DNA of 10,376 nt from a virus (taxonomy: Duplodnaviria > Heunggongvirae > Uroviricota > Caudoviricetes), in the IMG/VR virus record IMGVR_UViG_2778261657_000004. One strand, 5' to 3'. Below the pieces are notes generated by a model. It saw only the letters and a program-made list of their open reading frames with translations. It ran no database searches and had not been told where the DNA came from. Shown here piece by piece: positions 1 through 9,826 of this stretch. A program made the position numbers and the translations under genes. How positions within the stretch are numbered: position 1 is the first letter of the stretch; each line of letters starts with the position of its first letter.

Positions 1-1236
1 CTACGATAACCGCGCATTCAACATGGCTACCTGTTCGTCGTTCATGTCATCAATCCACATACCGTAAATTTCATACACCATCTGCGCAGTTTCATGCCCC
101 ATCTGGCTGGCTATAAACGCCGGGTTCGCTCCTGCCGTCAACAGCCAGCAGGCAAAAGTATGCCGCGTATGGTACGGATTACGGCGGCGAATACCAGCAC
201 GTTTTACTGCTGCATTCCATCTCGCACCCAAACTGCTTACCGAGTAATAAGGTTTCTGTTTTCCGTTACACACTCTGGGCATGAAAACAAAATGTAGTTT
301 TTGCTTTTCGGTTCTGCCGTACTCCCGATGGTAAAAAGTGATTTCGCCTTTGCGATGATGCCCGGTCAGTTTGTATTGCTCCTTCAGTGCTTCAAGAGCA
401 GGCTGCAGTAGCGTTACTGTCCGGATCCCGGCATTTGTTTTTGGGGGACCGAACATATCAAGTATCGTCAGGTTTCTTCTGACATTCACTATTCCCTTCT
501 CGAGATCCACATCCTCCCACGCCAGAGCTGCCAGTTCCCCGTGACGAAGTCCTGAGTAAACGGCAAATTTCCACAAGTTCTGGCTCTGTCCTTTTTCACT
601 TTCCATTAATGCATTGAATTCTGTTTTAGATAACGGATCCGGCTTTATTCTGTTTCGCTGTAATTTTTTTACTCCTTCAAATGGTTTGGTTGATATAAAT
701 CCCGACTGATACGCAAAACGTAACAGCGAACAGAGCAGGGCGATATAGTTATCAACTGTGCGCACGGTTCTTCCTTTTTTGTTGGATCTTGGATTATCCA
801 GGTAAAGCGTTTCTCCATGCAGCAGTTCATTCCGGTAGTTTAGGATATCGCTATAACGAATATGTGATATCGGGGTACTTTCACAAATTATTATTCTGAG
901 TGTTTTTAATTGTGATTTCGTTTTCTTCATTGTGTTTGTTGTTAACTCTGTCTCTTTAATTTTTGTCCAGATAACACAAAGCTCCCCGAACGTTTTTATG
1001 ACTCTCGTTGTCACCATTTTTGCCCCAGTGCTGGACTGGGGAAAACGTCTTAAATACTCAAATTCACCGGAGTTTATTTCATGAACTATCAGCGCTCTTA
1101 AATTTCCGGCCTTTTTAATATTACTGTTTGTAATCTCCCAGCCTTTTAATGTTTCCCGACATCGTTTTCCTCGAAACATGAACCAGATGCGAATGTTTCT
1201 ACCTCTAATCTCGACACCTGTTGGTAATTTAGACAT
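1..1236 (-). CDS. intR: Tyrosine-type site-specific recombinase / prophage integrase (Rac IntR-like)
   Basis: 411-codon ORF, stop at 1-3, ATG at 1234-1236. C-terminal catalytic region has ...PYHTRHTFA... (H-x-x-R) and a terminal ...QMVYEIYGMW... tyrosine, typical of phage integrases. The N-terminus MSKLPTGVEIRGR... matches my recollection of Rac IntR. Confidence 0.93.
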   Translation of the reverse strand: MSKLPTGVEIRGRNIRIWFMFRGKRCRETLKGWEITNSNIKKAGNLRALIVHEINSGEFEYLRRFPQSSTGAKMVTTRVIKTFGELCVIWTKIKETELTTNTMKKTKSQLKTLRIIICESTPISHIRYSDILNYRNELLHGETLYLDNPRSNKKGRTVRTVDNYIALLCSLLRFAYQSGFISTKPFEGVKKLQRNRIKPDPLSKTEFNALMESEKGQSQNLWKFAVYSGLRHGELAALAWEDVDLEKGIVNVRRNLTILDMFGPPKTNAGIRTVTLLQPALEALKEQYKLTGHHRKGEITFYHREYGRTEKQKLHFVFMPRVCNGKQKPYYSVSSLGARWNAAVKRAGIRRRNPYHTRHTFACWLLTAGANPAFIASQMGHETAQMVYEIYGMWIDDMNDEQVAMLNARLS

Positions 1237-1237
1237 A

Positions 1238-1453
1238 TCATGAGTCTTTGATAAACTGATTTATCTTTGGATAGTTGTACCAGATAATCCCTCGTTTGCT
1301 GTCTGGCTTACCTAAAGGAGATACTCGTTTGAAGTGGAAGCCCTCCACCCAACAGTTCTGGCGGTATGCTTCAATTTGTCTGGCCCCCAGACCAGTGCGA
1401 AGCATCAGGCCGTATTCAACCATCCACTCTTCATTAAAGATTACTTGTGCCAT
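1238..1453 (-). CDS. xisR: Excisionase-like small protein (Rac YdaQ/XisR family), 71 aa from internal ATG
   Basis: Small ORF immediately upstream of int: its TGA stop (1238-1240) is 1 nt from the int ATG. The 71-aa length from Met at 1451-1453 ([10 protein letters not shown]...) fits Rac YdaQ. The ORF-track start at 1477 is a less likely N-terminal extension. Confidence 0.72.
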
Positions 1454-1552
1454 CGCATCACCTCTGGCAGGCGCCAATGTTAGACTGAAATTGACGCCTG
1501 ATGTTGATTATTAATAATCAGCTATGAAGTTTTAATTTGAATACAATGCAAT

Positions 1553-1741
1553 TCACGAGGACTGAAGTTTCTCGCAATTAAAATTTATCAGTTTTACTTT
1601 CTGCTCTCTGGAAACGCCTGCTTCTTTTTTACCTGAGAGCATTTTTTCGCATTCTGATTTCGTTAGTTTAGATTTTGAATATCTTGTCCAGTTAGTAGGA
1701 GTGCCACCTTCCTTTTCAATTGTAGCGGTAATTTTATACAT
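1553..1741 (-). CDS. ydaC: Small prophage protein, YdaC-like (function unknown)
   Basis: ORF 1553..1813. Preferred start is the ATG at 1739-1741 (MYKITATIEKEGG...), preceded by GGAGG 5 nt upstream. This start overlaps the ralR stop in an ATGTATAA arrangement. Confidence 0.6.
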   Translation of the reverse strand: MYKITATIEKEGGTPTNWTRYSKSKLTKSECEKMLSGKKEAGVSREQKVKLINFNCEKLQSS

Positions 1742-1940
1742 GAACGCCTCCATTAATATTTTCAGTGGTTCGTTTATTCCATCTTTCGAGCGCTTCTTTT
1801 TCACTTCCACCATAGCCAGTTCGGGATTCGCATCCGTTGCATTTTGCCCGGTAATATCCTGAAATGTCTTTCACCGTTACTGATGGACAACCACAAAACG
1901 GACATGGTTTAACATCGTCATATCTCAAAGTTTTTGTCAT
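1734..1940 (-). CDS. ralR: Restriction alleviation protein RalR/Lar (reported as type I toxin, DNase)
   Basis: Translation MTKTLRYDDVKPCPFCGCPSVTVKDISGYYRAKCNGCESRTGYGGSEKEALERWNKRTT... has the Cys-rich CPFCGC...CNGC motif of the Lar/RalR family. It sits between ydaC and recT as in Rac. Confidence 0.85.
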   Translation of the reverse strand: MTKTLRYDDVKPCPFCGCPSVTVKDISGYYRAKCNGCESRTGYGGSEKEALERWNKRTTENINGGVHV

Positions 1941-1984
1941 AAAAACTATCTCACGTTGGCGGTGCATTACACCGCCAGGCTGGA

Positions 1985-2818
1985 TTATTCTTCTGGATTA
2001 TCGATTACACTGTATTCCCCGGCTATAACCGATATGTCGTCTGGATTAATTGTTTCCACCTCTTTTCCATCCATCGATACTGCACGCTGGATTTCAATAG
2101 ATACCGGCAGATACTTGAACAGTTTTCGTATCACTGTCTTTTTGGCCATGTCTTCAAAGTGTTCATCCCAGATGGACGACGCCCCTTTTGACGCTGCGTT
2201 TTTTGCCGCCTTGCTGTGTGTGTCGCGAACTTTTTCTACTTGTTTGCTGGTCATGACTTCAAACTGCACTCCTCCGTCTTTCAGTTTTGCAACAGCATAG
2301 ACATGGGTTATAGGGGCATCTTCGTTTTCACCGGGACGATGAACCAGTTTTTCATCAAGGCCAAGTTCATAGCTGAATTCATCACATTCACGGACAACAC
2401 GAGCTGACAGACTGATGATTTGACCTGATCGACGGGCAAGGTCGATCATGCCGCGATAACCGATGATCAGCTGTACGTTCTTCTTACCGTTTTTTGCTTT
2501 TCCGTTGCCGAACGGTAGCAGATATGCATGACCGAGGGCGCTACCTGGCTCAAGTCCGAGCTGTGAACACTGTACGATGGCACCGATAAAACTCGTCGAG
2601 TCACAGTTTCTTAGTTCCGGTACTTTACGGATTTCTGTTGTAGCAATGCGGATCATGCGTTCCGCTGTCATGTGACGTGGCAGAGCTGCTGCCAGTTGCG
2701 CTTTCATTGCCGGGCTGTTAATCACGCACAGCACATCCTTATCGTTAACTGCTGCTGGTGCACGGTTTCCCTGAGTTTTTTGCAGATCGGCTTTTGCGAT
2801 AGGTGGTTGCTTAGTCAT
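1985..2818 (-). CDS. recT: RecT single-strand annealing recombinase
   Basis: Translation from ATG at 2816-2818 ([24 protein letters not shown]...) matches RecT along its length, including ...[24 protein letters not shown]... and ...[17 protein letters not shown].... AGGAG lies 7 nt upstream, and the ATG is embedded in the last recE codons (AATGACTAA overlap). The ORF-track start at 2875 is rejected. Confidence 0.92.
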
Positions 2819-4040
2819 TTGCATACTCCTTAGCCCAGCGGGGCAGTGATAACGTCTTAATAGCTGGCCATTCATCGGTATTTAGGCAGTCAGCCAGGGT
2901 CCGCAGATTGCGGTGATATTCCTGCTGGCCTGCCAGTTTTGCTTCTTCGCCCATCATGAAAATCTCAACCGGATAACGTCCGCATTCAACAGTTGTGCTG
3001 GCAACCAGAAAAACGAAAGTTGGCTGCACACCAAACTGTGCTTCATAACCGTCACTGTAGAATGCATCCTGAACGTGATAGCGGTAGTCGTAATAAGCCA
3101 TTTTGAATCGTTGAATATCCGCTGTGGTTTTCACGTCCATGATCCAGTGAAATTCAGGAATAATTTTGTCCGGACGGCACCGACACAAAATTCCTGTTTC
3201 CGGATCTTCCCAGTAAATTGATGATTCAGCGTGTCCGGCGCTTTCAACAAGCCATTGCCCCAGCGGCAAAGCCATAACGCTTTGATACATGAGTTCAATT
3301 TTCCGGCCTTCTTCCGCAGTGATAACCGTTTTTCCTGTGCTTGCGCATTCCATCAGAAACGCTTTCTCTTCTTCTTTTCCGGCGTTTGTACGGCGGTTAA
3401 ATTCAGGTGCTACGATAAAGCGGTTACTGAATTCTTCCGGTTCAAGTACCCGGCAGTGGAAAGCGGTTCCTAAATCGAGCGTTTTTGTCTTTGTAGTGTC
3501 CACGGGGGCATTTTTACGCCACAAATACAGTGCCGGAGTATCAGCAATGTCATCGAGCTGAGACTTACTGACACCGGGACCCGCGTGGTAATTCTCATTC
3601 GAAATTCCGTAATAAATACCTGGCTCTATGTCTTCTACGATTACGGGATCTGCGACTTCGCCAGTTTCATCACTGCAATCGCGATGCGGATCGCTGCCAG
3701 CATTCTCATTGTGCGGATGTTCAGCGCCTTCCATTTCCTCCGGATCTTTTTCCTTAGCTTCAACCTGATTCTCTTCACCGAATGTTTCCTGGTATGTTGC
3801 GTCGCCCATCACCGCACCACAGTCAGGGCAGTTATCCCCGCCAGTCTGACCGCAGGCATTGCAGACTATTTCCGGTTCCTGTTGCACTACTGGCTCAGGT
3901 TGTTTCGCATCCGGGCTGATTTTTTCCGTTTCTGGCTGGTTCTGGTACACAGAATCGCGAGTCTGGAGCCCCTTAACCCATTTCGGATCGTTCGGGTCGC
4001 TAATTCCGTCAACAAATTCACCACGTGATGCAGCAAGCAA
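2811..4040 (-). CDS. recE: Exodeoxyribonuclease VIII RecE, C-terminal portion only (5'-truncated; possible pseudogene). The frame stays open upstream to 4190 without a convincing start.
   Basis: The 409-aa ORF (TTG at 4038-4040) reads ...[30 protein letters not shown]... through to ...[13 protein letters not shown], which is the C-terminal half of RecE including the nuclease domain. The same frame continues upstream as ...[47 protein letters not shown] until a stop at 4191-4193, with no ATG and no Shine-Dalgarno. K-12 RecE is 866 aa, so roughly the first 400 codons are missing. Confidence 0.85.
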
Positions 4041-4169
4041 TTTATCGGCATCGACAGGATTTTTTGATGGAATGTTTTTCCGGGCTTCATGGAGTTCTGC
4101 CCGCAGTTCCTGATATTTCGCATCAACAGAATTTACCTGTGACTGAGCATCCAGCGGCTGCGTGTTCTG

Positions 4170-4298
4170 ATGATGTTCAGTTGGCCTAAATCACTTTCTG
4201 TTGCCATTGGTGGTGGGGTGGGGCTGATTGGTGTTGATGCTATTCGTGGTGCGGCAATGAGGGTCATCGGTAACAAGTTCGGTGCCCATAAGGAGTAA
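4170..4298 (+). pseudogene. Possible 3' remnant of a holin (S-like) gene abutting the endolysin
   Basis: Short frame [42 protein letters not shown] ending at TAA 4296-4298, 3 nt before the endolysin ATG, in the position a holin normally occupies. It has one hydrophobic stretch followed by a charged tail. Its 5' part overlaps the recE frame, so it cannot be complete. Identity as a holin is not verified. Confidence 0.25.
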
Positions 4299-4301
4299 TT
4301 A

Positions 4302-4778
4302 ATGCAGACACTTAATTCCCAGCGTAAAGCTTTCCTTGATATGGTGGCATGGTCAGAAGGAACAGATAACGGACGGCAGAAAACCAGAAATCACGGTTAT
4401 GATGTTATTGTCGGTGGCGAACTGTTCACTGATTACTCCGATCACCCCCGCAAACTTGTCACGCTAAATCCGAAACTCAAATCAACAGCCGCTGGACGTT
4501 ACCAGCTTCTTTCACGCTGGTGGGATGCCTACCGCAAGCAACTTGGCCTGAAAGATTTTTCTCCAGAAAGTCAGGATGCTGTAGCGCTGCAGCAGATTAA
4601 AGAGCGTGGCGCTTTGCCGATGATTGATCGCGGTGATATCCGTCAGGCTATCGACCGTTGCAGCAATATATGGGCTTCACTGCCGGGCGCTGGTTATGGT
4701 CAGTTCGAGCATAAGGCTGACAGTCTGATTGCAAAATTCAAAGAAGCTGGCGGAACGGTCAGAGAGATTGAGGTATGA
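4302..4778 (+). CDS. R: Phage endolysin, lambda R-type lytic transglycosylase
   Basis: 158-aa translation [53 protein letters not shown]... is near-identical to lambda R as I recall it, including the catalytic Glu in AWSEGTD. AGGAG at 4291-4295 sits 6 nt upstream of the ATG. The TGA stop overlaps the Rz ATG (ATGA). Confidence 0.95.
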
Positions 4779-5239
4779 GCAGAGTAACCGCGATTATCTC
4801 CGCTCTGGTTATCTGCATCGTCGTCTGCCTGTCATGGGGTGTTAATCATTACCGTGATAACGCCATCGCCTACAAAGAACAGCGCGACAAAAATGCCAGA
4901 GAACTGAAGCTGGCGAACGCGGCAATTACTGACATGCAGATGCGTCAGCGTGATGTTGCTGCGCTCGATGCAAAATACACGAAGGAGTTAGCTGATGCGA
5001 AAGCTGAAAATGATGCTCTGCGTGATGATGTTGCCGCTGGTCGTCGTCGGTTGCACATCAAAGCAGTCTGTCAGTCAGTGCGTGAAGCCACCACCGCCTC
5101 CGGCGTGGATAATGCAGCCTCCCCCCGACTGGCAGACACCGCTGAACGGGATTATTTCACCCTCCGGGAACGACTGGTAATGATGCAGGCCCAACTTGAA
5201 GGTGCTCAGCAATACATAACCGAGCAGTGTTTAAAGTAA
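4775..5239 (+). CDS. rzpR: Spanin inner-membrane subunit Rz (i-spanin)
   Basis: 154-aa translation [21 protein letters not shown]... has an N-terminal transmembrane helix followed by a charged coiled-coil-like region, as in lambda Rz. Its start overlaps the R stop. Confidence 0.9.
4995..5180 (+). CDS. rzoR: Spanin outer-membrane lipoprotein subunit Rz1 (o-spanin), embedded in the +1 frame of Rz
   Basis: 61-aa translation [24 protein letters not shown]...[15 protein letters not shown] has a lipoprotein signal peptide with lipobox LVVVGC and a Pro-rich mature part. GAAGGAG sits 7 nt upstream of the ATG. It lies wholly inside Rz, as lambda Rz1 does. Confidence 0.87.
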
Positions 5240-5289
5240 AATCTTAACTACAATATGATTCATTTTGATGATTGTTTCATAAGGAACAG

Positions 5290-5376
5290 TGAAGTAAGAT
5301 CTAAGAGGAGTTAAATTTTATACAGTATAATCATAATATTGCAGCAAGGTGGTTATAATTGAAAGAATATTTAGAT
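5290..5376 (+). promoter_or_regulatory. AT-rich trkG upstream region with several -10-like hexamers and an SD (promoter not resolved)
   Basis: TATAAT at 5326-5331 and 5354-5359, CATAAT at 5332-5337, and AAGGTGG at 5346-5352. No convincing -35 at 17-bp spacing was found by eye, so the exact promoter is unassigned. Confidence 0.25.
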
Positions 5377-6834
5377 ATGAATACATCTCATGTAAGAGTT
5401 GTTACTCATATGTGTGGGTTCCTGGTTTGGCTCTATAGTCTTTCAATGTTGCCACCAATGGTTGTAGCATTGTTTTATAAAGAAAAAAGCCTGTTCGTTT
5501 TCTTAATAACTTTCGTTATATTTTTTTGCATTGGTGGCGGAGCGTGGTATACAACTAAGAAATCTGGCATTCAATTACGTACCCGTGATGGGTTTATTAT
5601 AATTGTAATGTTTTGGATTTTGTTTTCTGTTATTAGTGCATTCCCTTTATGGATTGACTCAGAACTTAATTTAACGTTCATTGATGCTCTGTTTGAAGGG
5701 GTTTCTGGAATAACAACAACAGGAGCAACTGTAATTGATGATGTTAGTTCATTACCTCGGGCATATTTGTACTATCGGTCACAGTTAAATTTTATAGGTG
5801 GTTTAGGAGTTATTGTTCTGGCGGTTGCTGTATTGCCATTATTGGGTATTGGTGGTGCAAAGCTTTATCAGTCAGAAATGCCGGGGCCATTTAAGGATGA
5901 CAAACTCACTCCCCGCCTGGCCGATACGTCACGGACACTGTGGATAACTTATTCTTTATTAGGTATTGCTTGTATTGTCTGTTATAGACTTGCAGGAATG
6001 CCTTTGTTTGATGCTATTTGTCACGGGATTTCCACAGTTTCGCTTGGTGGTTTCTCAACTCATAGCGAGAGTATCGGATATTTTAATAACTATTTGGTTG
6101 AGCTGGTGGCTGGTTCTTTTTCCCTGCTATCGGCTTTCAACTTCACTCTTTGGTATATTGTTATTAGCAGGAAAACGATAAAACCTTTAATCAGAGATAT
6201 TGAACTTCGTTTCTTTCTGTTAATAGCCTTAGGGGTGATCATTGTTACCTCTTTCCAGGTCTGGCATATAGGTATGTATGACTTGCATGGAAGTTTTATT
6301 CATTCGTTTTTTCTTGCCAGCTCCATGCTCACTGATAATGGTTTAGCTACGCAGGATTATGCAAGTTGGCCCACGCACACGATAGTGTTTTTGCTGTTGT
6401 CAAGTTTCTTTGGGGGATGTATAGGTTCAACTTGTGGTGGAATTAAGTCACTTCGATTTCTTATACTTTTCAAACAAAGCAAACACGAGATAAATCAGCT
6501 TTCTCATCCCAGAGCGTTGTTGAGTGTAAATGTAGGAGGGAAGATAGTTACAGATCGTGTAATGAGGTCTGTATGGAGTTTCTTTTTTCTTTATACTCTC
6601 TTCACGGTGTTTTTTATACTGGTGTTAAATGGTATGGGATATGATTTTCTTACATCATTTGCAACAGTGGCTGCATGTATTAATAATATGGGATTAGGTT
6701 TTGGGGCTACTGCATCGTCATTCGGAGTGCTTAATGACATTGCAAAATGTTTAATGTGCATAGCTATGATTCTTGGTCGCCTTGAAATTTATCCTGTTAT
6801 TATATTGTTTTCAGGTTTTTTTTGGCGCTCCTAA
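5377..6834 (+). CDS. trkG: Potassium uptake protein TrkG (Trk-system membrane subunit)
   Basis: 485-aa translation from ATG 5377 (MNTSHVRVVTHMCGFLVWLYSLSMLPP...) is a polytopic membrane protein matching TrkG as I recall it. The coding sequence is visibly AT-rich relative to its neighbours. An alternative TTG start at 5359 has the AAGGTGG SD 6 nt upstream. Confidence 0.94.
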   Translation: MNTSHVRVVTHMCGFLVWLYSLSMLPPMVVALFYKEKSLFVFLITFVIFFCIGGGAWYTTKKSGIQLRTRDGFIIIVMFWILFSVISAFPLWIDSELNLTFIDALFEGVSGITTTGATVIDDVSSLPRAYLYYRSQLNFIGGLGVIVLAVAVLPLLGIGGAKLYQSEMPGPFKDDKLTPRLADTSRTLWITYSLLGIACIVCYRLAGMPLFDAICHGISTVSLGGFSTHSESIGYFNNYLVELVAGSFSLLSAFNFTLWYIVISRKTIKPLIRDIELRFFLLIALGVIIVTSFQVWHIGMYDLHGSFIHSFFLASSMLTDNGLATQDYASWPTHTIVFLLLSSFFGGCIGSTCGGIKSLRFLILFKQSKHEINQLSHPRALLSVNVGGKIVTDRVMRSVWSFFFLYTLFTVFFILVLNGMGYDFLTSFATVAACINNMGLGFGATASSFGVLNDIAKCLMCIAMILGRLEIYPVIILFSGFFWRS

Positions 6835-6920
6835 TATATGGCTGATTTATAATTGTGAGTTTAATATTATGTTGACTCACTCATTGATCCAATACCTAAC
6901 TTTACCAGCAACACCTCCGT

Positions 6921-6958
6921 CCCCAGTAGCACTGGCTGCTGGGGTGCGTTTTATTCAT
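6921..6958 (+). terminator. Candidate rho-independent terminator downstream of trkG
   Basis: Inverted repeat CCCCAGTAGC (6921-6930) / GCTGCTGGGG (6935-6944) forms a 10-bp stem with one G-U wobble around loop ACTG, followed by TGCGTTTTATT. The T-tract is short and separated from the stem by 4 nt, so this is moderate at best. Confidence 0.35.
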
Positions 6959-6971
6959 AAAGCAAGGCTGT

Positions 6972-7763
6972 ATGAGCGAGAAATTAAAGATAGTCTATCG
7001 CCCATTACAAGAATTGTCACCGTATGCGCACAACGCCAGGACGCACAGTACTGAGCAGGTGGCACAACTGGAAGAAAGTATTAAGCAATTCGGCTGGACT
7101 AATCCGGTGCTGATTGACGAAAAGGGCGAAATTATTGCGGGTCACGGTCGTGTTATGGCGGCTGAAATGCTCAAAATGGATTCTGTTCCGGTCATTGTTC
7201 TGTCTGGCCTGACGGATGAGCAGAAAAAGGCGTACCGCCTGGCAGATAATCGCCTGCCGATGAATGCTGGCTGGGGTGAAGATCTGTTGCGGATGGAGCT
7301 GTCGGACCTAATCAATGCTGATTTTGATGTCTCCCTGACAGGCTTCATCCCGACAGAAATTGATGAACTGTTGACGGATGTTTTGCCCGGTACAGGAAAT
7401 GAGGAGGAGCCGTATACGACGAAAATTGATACGCCTGTTTATGAGCCGTCGGGCGGTAAACCGGATATCAGTGAACTGTACGACGATACGAAAACTCAGG
7501 AGCTGATCAGCCGGATACGTTCGGCGTCCCTTGAGCCTGATATTGAGAAATTCCTCCTGTGTGCGGCAGAACGTCACACGGTGTTTAATTTCAGCAGAAT
7601 TGCGGACTATTACGCTCACGCCCCCGCTGAAATTCAGTGTTTTTTCGAGGAGTCGGCGCTGGTGATCATTGATTATCAGCAGGCTATTGAAAATGGATTT
7701 GTCCGGATGACGCAGCGCATGGTGGAGATCATGCATGGTGGTGAGGAGGAGGAATATGCGTGA
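6972..7763 (+). CDS. ynaK: ParB-like nuclease-domain (ParB/Sulfiredoxin superfamily) protein, 263 aa; full-length relative of short Rac YnaK
   Basis: N-terminal region KIVYRPLQELSPYAHNARTHSTEQVAQLEESIKQFGWTNPVLIDEKGEIIAGHGRVMAA has the ParB N-terminal domain pattern (GxGR variant of the GERR box). The C-terminal ~150 aa are acidic with no domain I can assign, ending ...HGGEEEEYA. K-12 YnaK is, as I recall, only ~87 aa. Confidence 0.82.
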   Translation: MSEKLKIVYRPLQELSPYAHNARTHSTEQVAQLEESIKQFGWTNPVLIDEKGEIIAGHGRVMAAEMLKMDSVPVIVLSGLTDEQKKAYRLADNRLPMNAGWGEDLLRMELSDLINADFDVSLTGFIPTEIDELLTDVLPGTGNEEEPYTTKIDTPVYEPSGGKPDISELYDDTKTQELISRIRSASLEPDIEKFLLCAAERHTVFNFSRIADYYAHAPAEIQCFFEESALVIIDYQQAIENGFVRMTQRMVEIMHGGEEEEYA

Positions 7764-8688
7764 TGATTTTTGCGCCTTTATTCTGACTCACGGGCGACCG
7801 GACAAAGTTCTGACTTACCGGACGTTGCGTCGTGCTGGCTATACCGGGAAAATTTTTATCGTTGTTGATGATGAAGATAAGACACGGCATCAGTACATGG
7901 CTGAATTTGGTGAACAGGTGCTGGTGTTTTCCAAAGCCGATATCGCCAGTCGTTTTGACGAAGCCGATAATTTCTGTGACCGCCGCTCAATTTTTTACGC
8001 CCGTAATGCCTGTTTCGACCAGGCAAAACTGGTCGGGTGTAAATACTTCATTCAGCTCGATGATGATTATCACGAGTTCCAGTTTCGGGTGGATCGCAAC
8101 TATGACCAGGCCTATTTTCCGATAAGGAAACTGGATGCGATCCTTTCTGAAATGCTGGCGTACTACGAATCAATACCTGCTCTTTCCATCGCTATGTCGC
8201 AGGGAGGGGATTTTCTTGGTGACAATGGCGGCCATGCTTCGTGGGTGAAACGCAAGGCAATGAACAGCTTTATCTGTTCGGTTGATCGACCGTTCTCATT
8301 CATGGGGCGCATTAACGAGGATGTGAATACGTACACGAATCTCGGTCGCTGTGGTGAATTGTTTATGACGATCGGTGCTGTCCAGTTAGGGCAGAAACAG
8401 ACGCAGAAAAACAGCGGCGGAATGACCGAGCTGTATCTGGATTCCGGAACCTACGTTAAAAGTTTTTACTCCGTCATGTATGCGCCGTCGTGCGTAAAAA
8501 TCTCACTGATGGGTGCCAGCCATAAACGCATTCACCATCAGGTCACCTGGAACAACGCTGCAGTAAAAATCCTTCACGAAAAATACAGGAAGAAGACACC
8601 CTGCATATCAATGGGGGTGACAAATGATTCCGTATTCGAAAGTCGAGTCTCTGGCAGCGTGCCGGATGACTGCACAACAAATCGCTGA
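7756..8688 (+). CDS. Hypothetical prophage protein (~310 aa) with GT-A-like motif pattern (possible nucleotide-sugar transferase fold); function unknown
   Basis: ATG at 7756 is preceded by the GAGGAGGAGG purine run and overlaps the upstream stop (ATGCGTGA). The N-terminus has a beta-alpha-beta pattern AFILTHGRPDK...GKIFIVVDDEDK, with a DxD-like YFIQLDDDY about 60 residues later, spacing typical of GT-A glycosyltransferases. There is no Walker A motif. This is inference from motifs only. Confidence 0.6.
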   Translation: MRDDFCAFILTHGRPDKVLTYRTLRRAGYTGKIFIVVDDEDKTRHQYMAEFGEQVLVFSKADIASRFDEADNFCDRRSIFYARNACFDQAKLVGCKYFIQLDDDYHEFQFRVDRNYDQAYFPIRKLDAILSEMLAYYESIPALSIAMSQGGDFLGDNGGHASWVKRKAMNSFICSVDRPFSFMGRINEDVNTYTNLGRCGELFMTIGAVQLGQKQTQKNSGGMTELYLDSGTYVKSFYSVMYAPSCVKISLMGASHKRIHHQVTWNNAAVKILHEKYRKKTPCISMGVTNDSVFESRVSGSVPDDCTTNR

Positions 8689-8908
8689 CGTTCTGGATGT
8701 TGATCTGAACCGACTGAAAGAAAATCGGGAAGCCGCGTGGGAAATCTGGAGTAAAACACTGACTGGAGAAACAGTTCCGTTCAGCTTCACGCTTTCGAAT
8801 GGAGAGGGGGCATACACTTTCAGTTTCCCGAAGGTTCAGGTGTCAGGTGAATGGCCTGATGGGGGTAATAGCGACATTATCAGAAGTGGAACGGCACAGC
8901 CTGGGTGA
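8624..8908 (+). CDS. Hypothetical 94-aa protein or remnant of an unidentified phage gene
   Basis: ORF with SD GGGGGTG 5 nt upstream of ATG 8624. It overlaps the 3' end of the preceding gene by 65 nt in another frame. The N-terminus has a helix-turn-helix-like stretch ([20 protein letters not shown]). Its TGA stop overlaps the GTG that opens the tfa fragment. No family assigned. Confidence 0.3.
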
Positions 8909-9138
8909 AGGATACGGAAGCAGAAAAACTGTTCCGGATCCGGGAGGCGGAAGAAACAAAAAAAAGCCTGATGCAGGTAGCCAGTGAGCATATTGCGCCG
9001 CTTCAGGATGCTGCAGATCTGGAAATTGCAACGGAGGAAGAAATCTCGTTGCTGGAAGCATGGAAAAAGTATCGGGTATTGCTGAACCGTGTTGATACGT
9101 CAACTGCACAGGATATTGAATGGCCAGCACTGCCGTAG
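8881..9138 (+). pseudogene. tfaR: Tail fibre assembly protein (TfaR-like), 3' fragment only
   Basis: Frame reads [86 protein letters not shown], the conserved C-terminus of lambdoid Tfa proteins. The frame is closed by TAG at 8869-8871 immediately upstream, so the N-terminal ~100 codons and the whole stf gene are absent. Confidence 0.75.
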
Positions 9139-9235
9139 GGTAAAACATATAAATTCTATAATTAGATGTATCTTTCCATTTACGGCAAGGAAGGGGGCTT
9201 GGAAGACGTAAAGCATCTCACACCGAGATTATTTT

Positions 9236-9826
9236 TTATATGTCAGGTGTCTGAAGTTTTGCTTTGGCTCTTAAAATGGTTTGCCGCGAGGTTTTGAATT
9301 CCCGGGCAATGGCACTTATACTTACACCTGACTTAATTCGTTCGAATACCACCTGTTTCTGTTCTTCATTTAACACAGGTGGTCGACCAAAACGTTTCCC
9401 TGCGCCGCGGGCTCTTACTATCCCGGAATGAGTGCGTTCAAGTAAAAGGTCTCGTTCAAATTCAGCGACTGCTGAAATTACTTGCATCATCATTTTTCCT
9501 GTTGGACTGGTCAGGTCAATGCCAGCCAATGCTAAGCAATGCACTCTGATACCTGTTTCGGTCAGTTGTTCCACTGTTTTCCTGATATCCATTGCATTAC
9601 AACCAAGGCGATCCAGTTTTGTCACAATCAATTGATCACCACATTTCAGGCGAGCAAGCAACCGGTTAAAACCAGGACGCTCACTGGTTGCTGCTGAGCC
9701 GCTAATGTGTTCTTCGATTATTTGCTGAGGTTTGATTTTAAAACCTGCACTTTCGATTTCCCGGCGTTGATTTTCGGTGGTCTGATCCAGCGTTGATATC
9801 CGACAGTAAGCAAAAATTCGAGACAT
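9236..9826 (-). CDS. pinR: Serine recombinase / DNA invertase (Pin/Hin/Gin family), PinR-like
   Basis: 196-aa translation [29 protein letters not shown]... has the catalytic serine in the N-terminal YCRISTLDQ motif and a C-terminal HTH ([20 protein letters not shown]). It lies next to the tfa remnant as in Rac and e14. Confidence 0.94.

Follow-up and report, generated by a model that had tools for sequence, protein, structure and literature searches.

Two overlapping open reading frames, ORF1 and ORF2, are examined here in the IMG/VR virus record IMGVR_UViG_2778261657_000004, a stretch of 10,376 nucleotides (hereafter the window) that represents a heavily reduced Rac-type prophage of Escherichia, ~10 kb in size, multiply deleted and defective. 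ORF1 carries a ParB/Srx-type N-terminal module, and ORF2 is a glycosyltransferase of the TAGT family (TET-associated glycosyltransferases, PF20691). The pair is conserved from Escherichia coli phages to archaeal viruses. Our principal proposal, to which we give an even chance of being right, is that the two proteins make up a single two-subunit phage enzyme, a glycosyltransferase tethered to DNA, which glycosylates phage DNA before packaging, most plausibly for protection. The case draws on the family, fold and catalytic motif of ORF2, on the strict linkage and co-variation of the two genes and their conserved overlap, on the modular exchange of the putative tether, and on the genomic context.

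The ORF2 glycosyltransferase

Over residues 8-222, ORF2 scores 120.4 bits for the Pfam TAGT family, whose cut-off is 27.5 (E 1.2e-34). Sequence comparison detects no solved structure for ORF2. An AlphaFold model with 48 sequences as input (mean predicted local distance difference test score, pLDDT, of 70, the N-terminal half being very confident) predicts a GT-A (nucleotide-diphospho-sugar transferase) fold. In a comparison with viral models, this model best matches TAGT-domain proteins (E 3e-25); its structural neighbours also include the protein/peptide glycosyltransferases glycogenin, SunS, GalNAc-T and POMGnT1. The three aspartates of the catalytic motif, D102-D103-D104, are invariant from E. 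coli through a haloarchaeal virus (Table 1).

The preliminary description of this DNA had read ORF2, which has no Walker A motif, as a GT-A sugar transferase and not as a terminase. Both halves of that statement hold, given the modelled fold, the invariant DXD motif and the absence of any terminase family among the profile matches of ORF1 and ORF2. Intact relatives encode their terminase in separate genes further downstream, and the identification of either protein as a terminase or packaging protein was rejected on these two grounds. No structural protein is matched either. The same description called the pair a candidate uncharacterised module, which needs correction for ORF2, a member of a named family.

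Beyond the Pfam model, ORF2 possesses a C-terminal region that is highly conserved, yet receives pLDDT values of 35-55 when modelled alone. This region (residues ~186-282) is a candidate for the surface that docks the partner.

The TAGT family includes the T2/T6 enzyme which adds the second glucose to glucosyl-5-hydroxymethylcytosine (glucosyl-hmC), and its characterised members, such as this one, are DNA-base glycosyltransferases (PMC13216743). In the same 2026 study, 288 of the 753 TAGT-encoding phages carry a ‘solitary’ TAGT of undefined function (PMC13216743). Furthermore, GT-A phage glycosyltransferases have been shown to hypermodify 5-hydroxymethylcytosine in DNA, and ParB-like genes are listed, without analysis, among the neighbours of such enzymes (bioRxiv 10.1101/2023.12.21.572611). 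ORF2 may likewise transfer a sugar to a DNA base. The name of PHROG 842, ‘beta-glucosyl-HMC-alpha-glucosyltransferase’, is nonetheless an over-annotation for ORF2, because the intact Rac-like phage has neither hmC synthesis nor an alpha-glucosyltransferase (alpha-GT), a tblastn search with ORF2 at E 1e-5 did not reach the T-even phage enzymes, and ORF2 has both an extra C-terminal region and an obligate partner.

Linkage and overlap of the two genes

The linkage of the genes was examined in two sets of 80 loci, one taken from viral contigs and the other from genomes at one per species (L numbers below), all scanned with profiles of TAGT, of the ParB part of ORF1 and of its C-terminal part. The C-terminal domain of the partner lies upstream of TAGT on the same strand in all 78 species-level loci that have upstream DNA. 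It is directly adjacent in 72 of the 78 and separated by at least one gene in the other six: the intervening gene is a second, divergent TAGT in L136, L154, L155 and L160, a SAM-methyltransferase-like gene in L138, and in L162 a 555-nt gap contains a sole ORF of 74 residues, which could not be assigned. Among sequenced phages, all 28 records carrying the partner domain also carry TAGT. Conversely, the TAGT phage records without a domain match are degraded copies or a distant Porphyromonas phage, whose TAGT is just 27% identical and in which the partner domain is still found by profile comparison (hhalign probability 97%). Co-conservation is thus essentially 100%, and the earlier suggestion that the two genes form one co-conserved unit is borne out.

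The hosts comprise Enterobacteria, Bacteroidota, Clostridia, Veillonella, Verrucomicrobiota, Planctomycetota, Acidobacteriota and others, with TAGT identities of 44-57%. The pairwise identities of the two proteins correlate with r = 0.57 (maximum 0.12 in 999 permutations), as expected of a co-inherited, co-evolving pair.

The 8-nt overlap of ORF1 and ORF2 reported previously is confirmed. In nearly all loci, across phyla, the stop codon of the partner and the start codon of TAGT overlap by 4, 8, 11, 14 or 17 nt, and related loci have the same purine-rich stretch ahead of the equivalent ATG. ORF2 was listed as the ORF 7735-8688, which holds an in-frame ATG at 7756 and from there encodes a protein of 310 residues; this start is supported because homologues in other phyla begin at the equivalent MRDDF residue. 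Neither frame is a chance ORF, as both have strong family matches.

Within E. coli, the pair is present (at least 80% coverage) in 889 of 5426 complete genomes (16%), and many copies are truncated by deletions. RefSeq names ORF1 ‘ynaK: ParB/Srx family N-terminal domain-containing protein’ and ORF2 ‘GREB1-related protein’ or ‘hypothetical protein’. In Shigella flexneri CP182557 (L088; TAGT at 6001), the partner ORF with the C-terminal domain has just 168 residues and its ParB-profile match falls to E 5e-17, compared with 1e-65 in E. coli; the gene seems to be disrupted, in a manner resembling pseudogenisation.

The partner protein and its exchangeable N-termini

The N-terminus of ORF1 had been assigned to the ParB/Srx type. 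In Pfam the match is borderline, ParB_N (PF02195) covering residues 23-90 with 28.6 bits against a threshold of 26.3, and the NCBIfam parB model TIGR00180 reaches 36 bits against a cut-off of 58, over residues 11-94 only. The assignment is backed by PHROG matches (E 1e-27 to 1e-88) and by PDB profile matches (E 1e-9 to 1e-12), in which Noc and Spo0J are the closest solved relatives. Residues 3-141 match PHROG 498, ‘DNA methyltransferase’ (E 3e-49), and residues 10-144 match the N-terminal ~150 positions of the PADLOC model MTase_II (E 1.4e-37), the sole PADLOC match of ORF1. These PADLOC and PHROG 498 matches are limited to positions 13-151 of 436 and 31-171 of 633, and ORF1 contains no methyltransferase domain. 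By tblastn, the module occurs in 391 phage records, many of them annotated as DNA methylases.

The CTP-binding box GERRxRA of ParB proteins aligns to G57-HGRVM-A63 in ORF1, with a single arginine kept, and equivalents of the box I Arg and of the box III Asp-Asn are retained. Since the GERRxRA box is degenerate and there is neither a helix-turn-helix (HTH) nor a dimerisation domain, ORF1 is not a partition protein, and ‘partition protein’ is a misleading name for genes of this type. No ParA gene is present in the window, and a search for parS-like or other repeats within 6700-9000 returned nothing notable. A 313-residue protein from an ENA metagenome (P0121) is an ORF1 variant with an internal duplication of ~50 residues at the end of the ParB module (VLSGLTDEQKK...SLTGF twice).

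The ‘long acidic C-terminal region’ of ORF1, which the preliminary description could not assign, turns out to be a conserved domain. These last ~110 residues are, unlike the ParB part, invariably linked to TAGT. This TAGT-partner domain has no Pfam family and no fold match; it is modelled as disordered when alone, and so is the C-terminal region of ORF2. Tyrosines Y148 and Y157 are invariant and lie in a flexible peptide of the partner, YTxKIxxPxYEP. The domain is also found in Lactobacillus, Nocardia, Vibrio, Porphyromonas and haloarchaeal viruses.

What precedes this domain is variable. At the 80 species-level loci, the N-terminal domain is recognised by the ParB profile in 47 and divergent in 11, at least five of which, read by eye, carry ParB-like GNHR/GHQR-type motifs. 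A further 14 partners are short ORFs (53-168 residues) with little beyond the C-terminal domain, although several of these look truncated or frameshifted; six are cut by a contig end and two have no upstream DNA. A profile search of a large protein collection returned mainly stand-alone partners of ~132 residues without a Pfam domain. The motif Q-x-x-[LMIV]-F occupies residues 3-7 in 101 of the best 120 stand-alone partners (P0241-P0360) and never occurs elsewhere in them; QINLF is the commonest version, typically as MKQINLFG. The beta-clamp-binding consensus is QL[SD]LF, with QLNLF in UmuC (PMC3716654), and the N-terminal MKQxNLFG of the short partners resembles such a motif.

MKQxNLFG is also carried by the partners at L103, L109, L124, L125, L140, L144 and L149. 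Replication modules surround the loci with such short partners. The gene order in L107 and L109 is DNA polymerase A, (second TAGT), partner, TAGT and DnaN beta-clamp; in L144 it is second TAGT, partner, TAGT and DnaN, and in L103 a primase-helicase gene lies upstream. An experimental precedent for a clamp-borne DNA glycosyltransferase is the T4 alpha-glucosyltransferase, which co-purifies with the gp45 clamp. Estimates of the size of the partner family (43,894, 23,609 and 4,342) were dropped as non-specific, because the 266-position profile includes ParB columns and ordinary ParB proteins were mixed in. A natural fusion (P0081), partial and apparently error-ridden, was not used.

Genomic context

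At most loci the pair stands immediately ahead of the packaging genes, in the order partner, TAGT, (small terminase subunit, TerS), large terminase subunit (TerL) and portal. The adjoining terminases belong to at least four Pfam types (Terminase_6N, Terminase_3, TerL_ATPase, GpA), and some loci have no annotated TerS and pass straight from TAGT to TerL. The upstream neighbours are mixed ends of early or lysis modules: single-stranded DNA-binding protein (SSB), VRR-NUC, RusA, a few DNA methylases and lysozyme. In Vibrio phages of ~191 kb, primase/exonuclease genes flank the pair on one side and a helicase gene on the other, and the part of these genomes that was examined shows no sign of lysogeny. 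The module is also present in phage c5, a virulent cos phage.

The census of neighbours revealed no conserved third gene of the TET, hydroxymethylase or methyltransferase type; DNA methylases are sporadic (5 of 150 upstream genes). Radical SAM genes make up 10 of 150 downstream genes and encode proteins of ~320 residues with the motif CNNKCPYC and no specific NCBIfam family. In the loci examined, which are Clostridia-type prophages (L135:6860-7816, L150:6864-7838), the radical SAM protein is encoded directly downstream of TAGT.

Some loci hold a second TAGT in tandem (L136:5160-6011, L154:5153-6004, L155:641-1489, L160:5178-6011, L107:2970-3842, L144:4794-5600), which suggests the stepwise addition of two sugars in some phages. 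On a Pseudobdellovibrionaceae contig, a gene for UDP-galactopyranose mutase (Pfam GLF, E 2e-73) follows TAGT directly (L141:3340-4527), and galactofuranose may be the sugar transferred there. Tandem TAGTs and the mutase are consistent with the building of a glycan.

Proposed mechanism

We infer from these observations a physical complex of the two proteins, DNA as its substrate and a protective role. ORF2 would be the catalytic subunit, a TAGT-family GT-A enzyme that uses its DXD motif and a nucleotide-sugar donor. ORF1 would be its dedicated partner, made in fixed proportion from the overlapping, translationally coupled genes, and its C-terminal domain would bind the conserved C-terminal region of the transferase. 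The ParB/Srx-type N-module, as found fused to phage DNA methyltransferases, would then bring the enzyme to DNA; in short partners the clamp-motif-like N-terminal peptide might serve as the tether instead. In an intact phage the pair would be expressed with late or replication genes, just before terminase, and phage DNA would be glycosylated after replication and before packaging, probably as a shield from host nucleases. Phage DNA is taken as the likely substrate by analogy with the ParB-methyltransferase fusions and the T-even enzymes. Adding sugars to their DNA is a classic way for phages to counter host defences. DNA modification, one of two roles that the preliminary description had considered, is the best-supported reading.

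Several points weigh against it. The main weakness is that every known TAGT-type acceptor is missing: neither TET/JBP, nor a thymidylate-synthase-like hydroxymethylase, nor an alpha/beta-GT is encoded in the intact Rac-like phage, and the window holds no TET/JBP or other source of 5-hydroxymethyl-pyrimidine. Likewise, none of these genes is among the 25 commonest Pfam families among ~300 neighbour genes at ~95 loci, a count in which rarer single families could be missed. GREB1, a eukaryotic TAGT relative, O-GlcNAcylates a protein, ER-alpha (PMC7968844). The ORF1 module, whose binding to DNA or CTP is putative, has neither the canonical GERRxRA arginines nor an HTH domain. The clamp-motif argument is one of sequence resemblance among relatives that are not independent of each other, and the ORF1 of the window falls outside it. 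Lastly, the copy in the window follows a terminator-like hairpin and lacks both a promoter-like site and a Q region, and in this defective remnant the pair may not be expressed.

Two options present themselves for the substrate: ordinary DNA, whose glycosylation would be new chemistry, or a protein. Sugar modification of DNA is known only from phages that first make hydroxymethyl-cytosine or hydroxymethyl-uracil. The first option, in which the sugar would be placed directly on ordinary DNA with no hydroxymethylated base, by an enzyme carried on a ParB-type module or on the host or phage beta clamp, is a tentative and rather doubtful one.

The second option, a protein glycosyltransferase, we consider unlikely. 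Its substrate might be its own partner, modified at the invariant YTxKIxxPxYEP tyrosines in a glycogenin-like manner, or a DNA-bound or virion protein, and the tether would only localise the enzyme. Besides the example of GREB1 and the missing hydroxymethyl-base pathway, such a role would suit the position of the two tyrosines in a flexible peptide, the protein/peptide glycosyltransferases among the structural neighbours, and a module that adjoins the structural operon. However, both kinds of N-terminal module point to DNA, one being methyltransferase-type and the other clamp-like and encoded next to genes for DnaN and DNA polymerase; DNA is the substrate of those phage members of the family that have been characterised; and the invariant tyrosines could equally well be interface residues.

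Less probable still is a prophage-encoded host function, either a defence that glycosylates foreign DNA, the other role raised in the preliminary description, or a lysogenic conversion that alters a cell-surface glycan. The literature raises the idea of prophage glycosyltransferases acting against invading phages (bioRxiv 10.1101/2023.12.21.572611), ParB-like domains recur in defence systems, and the pair adjoins the trkG moron and is intact both in a prophage that has undergone heavy deletion and in 16% of the complete genomes of E. coli. Set against this, none of the PADLOC defence models matches ORF2, and ORF1 matches the methyltransferase-type N-module only. The module occurs in late or replication operons, including those of the virulent phage c5 and of the large Vibrio phages; in the window the hairpin lies upstream with no promoter-like site. 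ORF2 is not obviously membrane-associated, judging from a reading of its sequence, and the many truncated copies in E. coli are what neutral decay predicts. Defence of the lysogen is disfavoured on the grounds of phage carriage, the limited PADLOC match and the hairpin.

The intactness of the two genes had been taken to suggest selection. This argument is weak, for the window is a multiply deleted remnant without a Q/late-promoter region, and intactness may reflect recent decay in a remnant that lacks late regulatory elements.

A DNA-packaging accessory role is very improbable: the ParB-like protein would act with terminase as a nuclease or site-recognition factor, like the HNH proteins of some cos phages, and the TAGT-like protein would be structural or regulatory, which would suit the pre-terminase gene order kept with several terminase families and the loci without an annotated TerS, but the part invariably linked is the C-terminal domain, whereas partners can do without the ParB module; the catalytic DXD never varies; replication modules, at a distance from terminase genes, house the short forms and the copies in Vibrio phages; and the same N-module is common on phage DNA methyltransferases of many hosts and so accompanies DNA-modifying enzymes. 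ParB-module methylases often occupy the same pre-terminase position.

The window and its prophage

The coordinates of the features discussed are collected in Table 1. According to blastn, positions 1-4183 of the window are collinear with the region from int to recE of the intact Rac-like phage ON470595, and positions 4775-8733 with the region from Rz to just beyond ORF2, where collinearity stops at 8733. The next 152 nt, at 8730-8881, derive from the major tail gene, and from ~8880 onwards there is part of a tail-fibre assembly (tfa) gene. These breaks imply that the prophage lacks its immunity, replication and Q regions together with all of its packaging and head genes.

Table 1. Coordinates of features in the window. 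The overall gene order is integrase, recT/recE, lysozyme, Rz/Rz1, trkG, ORF1+ORF2, tail-gene fragments and pin-type invertase.
Feature	Position	Strand	Details
Integrase	1-1236	minus	ORF list
recT and truncated recE	between integrase and lysozyme		ORF list
Lysozyme	4302-4778		ORF list
Rz	4775-5239		nested Rz1 inside
trkG moron	5359-6834		ORF list
Terminator-like hairpin	6921-6944	+	directly after trkG, 28 nt upstream of ORF1; 10-pair stem (7 G-C), 4-nt loop, tail TGCGTTTTAT
ORF1	6972-7763	+	263 aa, intact; full-length form of ynaK; PHROG 620, E 1e-88 over aa 1-250
N-terminal ParB/Srx-type module (ORF1 aa 1-141)	6972-7394	+	Pfam ParB_N, PHROG 498, PADLOC MTase_II
TAGT-partner domain (ORF1 aa ~148-263)	7413-7760	+	peptide YTTKIDTPVYEP, helical core, ALVIIDY segment, acidic tail
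Shine-Dalgarno-like sequence for ORF2	7743-7754	+	GAGGAGGAGGAA, within ORF1 acidic-tail codons
ORF1/ORF2 overlap, 8 nt	7756-7763	+	ATGCGTGA; ORF2 ATG 7756-7758, ORF1 TGA 7761-7763
ORF2	7756-8688	+	310 aa, intact, MRDDFCAF...; TAGT-family GT-A glycosyltransferase
DDD (D102-D104)	8059-8067	+	DXD metal and nucleotide-sugar motif of GT-A enzymes; invariant in 11 cross-phylum and 48 closer sequences
ORF2 C-terminal region (aa 199-280)	8350-8595	+	GGMTELY..GTYVKSFYSVM..PSCVK..RIHH; outside Pfam model; PHROG 31222, E 4e-45; invariant residues
Remnant of small ORF preceding terS in intact Rac-like phages	8624-8733	+	blastn against ON470595 and its annotation; PHROG 309 terS-like match, aa 3-37
Pin-type invertase	9236-9826		ORF list

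At least three deletion junctions can be recognised in this ~10-kb ‘mini-Rac’ (~4184-4774, 8730-8881 and 8880-9140), between recE and the lysis region, between the small pre-terS ORF and the 152-nt tail piece, and between the tail piece and the tfa fragment. A place that covers at least 80% of 8500-9300 exists in none of the 5426 complete E. coli genomes, so that the arrangement appears unique in this collection. No promoter-like site was found between the hairpin and ORF1. The hairpin agrees with the view that trkG forms a self-contained moron, inserted where the lysis genes would otherwise adjoin the ParB-TAGT pair.

Three further elements were observed. An Rfam match to the small RNA RalA, the antitoxin of the RalR toxin, spans 1557-1735 (+) and scores 218 bits, the gathering score being 170; it overlaps the minus-strand ORFs 1553-1813 and 1734-1967, and the same region holds ralR in the intact Rac-like phage. 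The Rfam family IS009 has a full-length match at 8906-9104 (+, 219 bits) within the tail-fibre assembly fragment (ORF 8905-9138, Caudo_TAP). A 61-residue ORF at 4995-5180 (+), embedded in Rz, has a start resembling a lipoprotein signal peptide and, judged by its sequence, looks like an intact Rz1 o-spanin.

The corresponding genes of K-12 had been given as a short ynaK and the pseudogene ydaY. The former is correct, as K-12 keeps nucleotides 1-254 of ORF1. YdaY, on the other hand, does not resemble ORF2; it shares 98% identity with the C-terminal end of a tail-region gene product in an intact Rac-like phage, and its identification as an ORF2 remnant was rejected. K-12 thus has no remnant of the transferase gene, which the deletion removed entirely.

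Significance and comparison with known systems

The enzyme family itself is not new, and passing mention has been made of ParB-like genes next to phage glycosyltransferases. We found no prior description of the partner domain, of its near-100% linkage with this TAGT clade in bacteria and archaea, of the alternative ParB and clamp-motif tethers or of the missing hydroxymethyl-base pathway. The literature searched holds no description of the ParB-TAGT pair or of a ynaK/ydaY function; it did not cover Iyer et al. 2013, the study defining TAGT, which may mention the linkage.

One large clade of ‘solitary’ TAGTs is not solitary, being always accompanied by a dedicated partner domain that lies outside database families. 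The module resides in ordinary lambdoid E. coli prophages, where genetics and nucleoside mass spectrometry are easy, and this makes the function of ‘solitary’ TAGTs testable. Two misleading names, ‘beta-glucosyl-HMC-alpha-glucosyltransferase’ and ‘partition protein’, are corrected. Should the sugar indeed be placed directly on ordinary DNA, a hidden hypermodification of DNA would exist in the lambdoid prophages of about one sixth of E. coli genomes and in phages and viruses of many bacterial phyla and of haloarchaea, and it could affect sequencing, restriction mapping and phage host range. An unmodified base as the acceptor would mean new DNA chemistry.

The closest known systems are the T2/T6 beta-glucosyl-HMC-alpha-glucosyltransferase and the TET-associated glycosyltransferases, which share the Pfam family, GT-A fold, DXD motif and phage origin, and the tandem second TAGTs of some related loci are reminiscent of T6, where sugars are added stepwise. 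In contrast to T2/T6, the Rac-type phage has no hmC synthesis, alpha/beta-GT or TET, and its clade, which falls among the ‘solitary TAGTs’ flagged as functionally undefined (PMC13216743), has the additional conserved C-terminal region and the obligate partner. GREB1 and the kinetoplastid base-J glucosyltransferase (JGT) are, according to the cited sources, relatives of the TAGT domain; both are large multidomain eukaryotic proteins, GREB1 acting on a protein and JGT on hydroxymethyl-uracil made by JBP.

For the partner, the ParB/Noc CTP-dependent clamps have a homologous N-terminal domain, whereas ORF1 has no HTH, no dimerisation domain and no ParA partner, and its GERRxRA box is degenerate (GHGRVMA). 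The T4 alpha-GT/gp45 pair, a DNA glycosyltransferase coupled to a DNA-encircling clamp, is paralleled by the clamp-like motif and dnaN neighbour of the short partners. The T4 enzyme, however, adopts a GT-B fold and contacts the clamp directly, while here a separate adaptor would do so, and the ORF1 of the window has a ParB module and no motif. Lastly, in the ParB/Srx-module DNA methyltransferases (PHROG 498, PADLOC MTase_II) the same N-module of ~140 residues is joined to a DNA-modifying catalytic unit. There the catalytic SAM domain is fused to the module, whereas here the module is carried by an adaptor which we propose recruits a separate glycosyltransferase.

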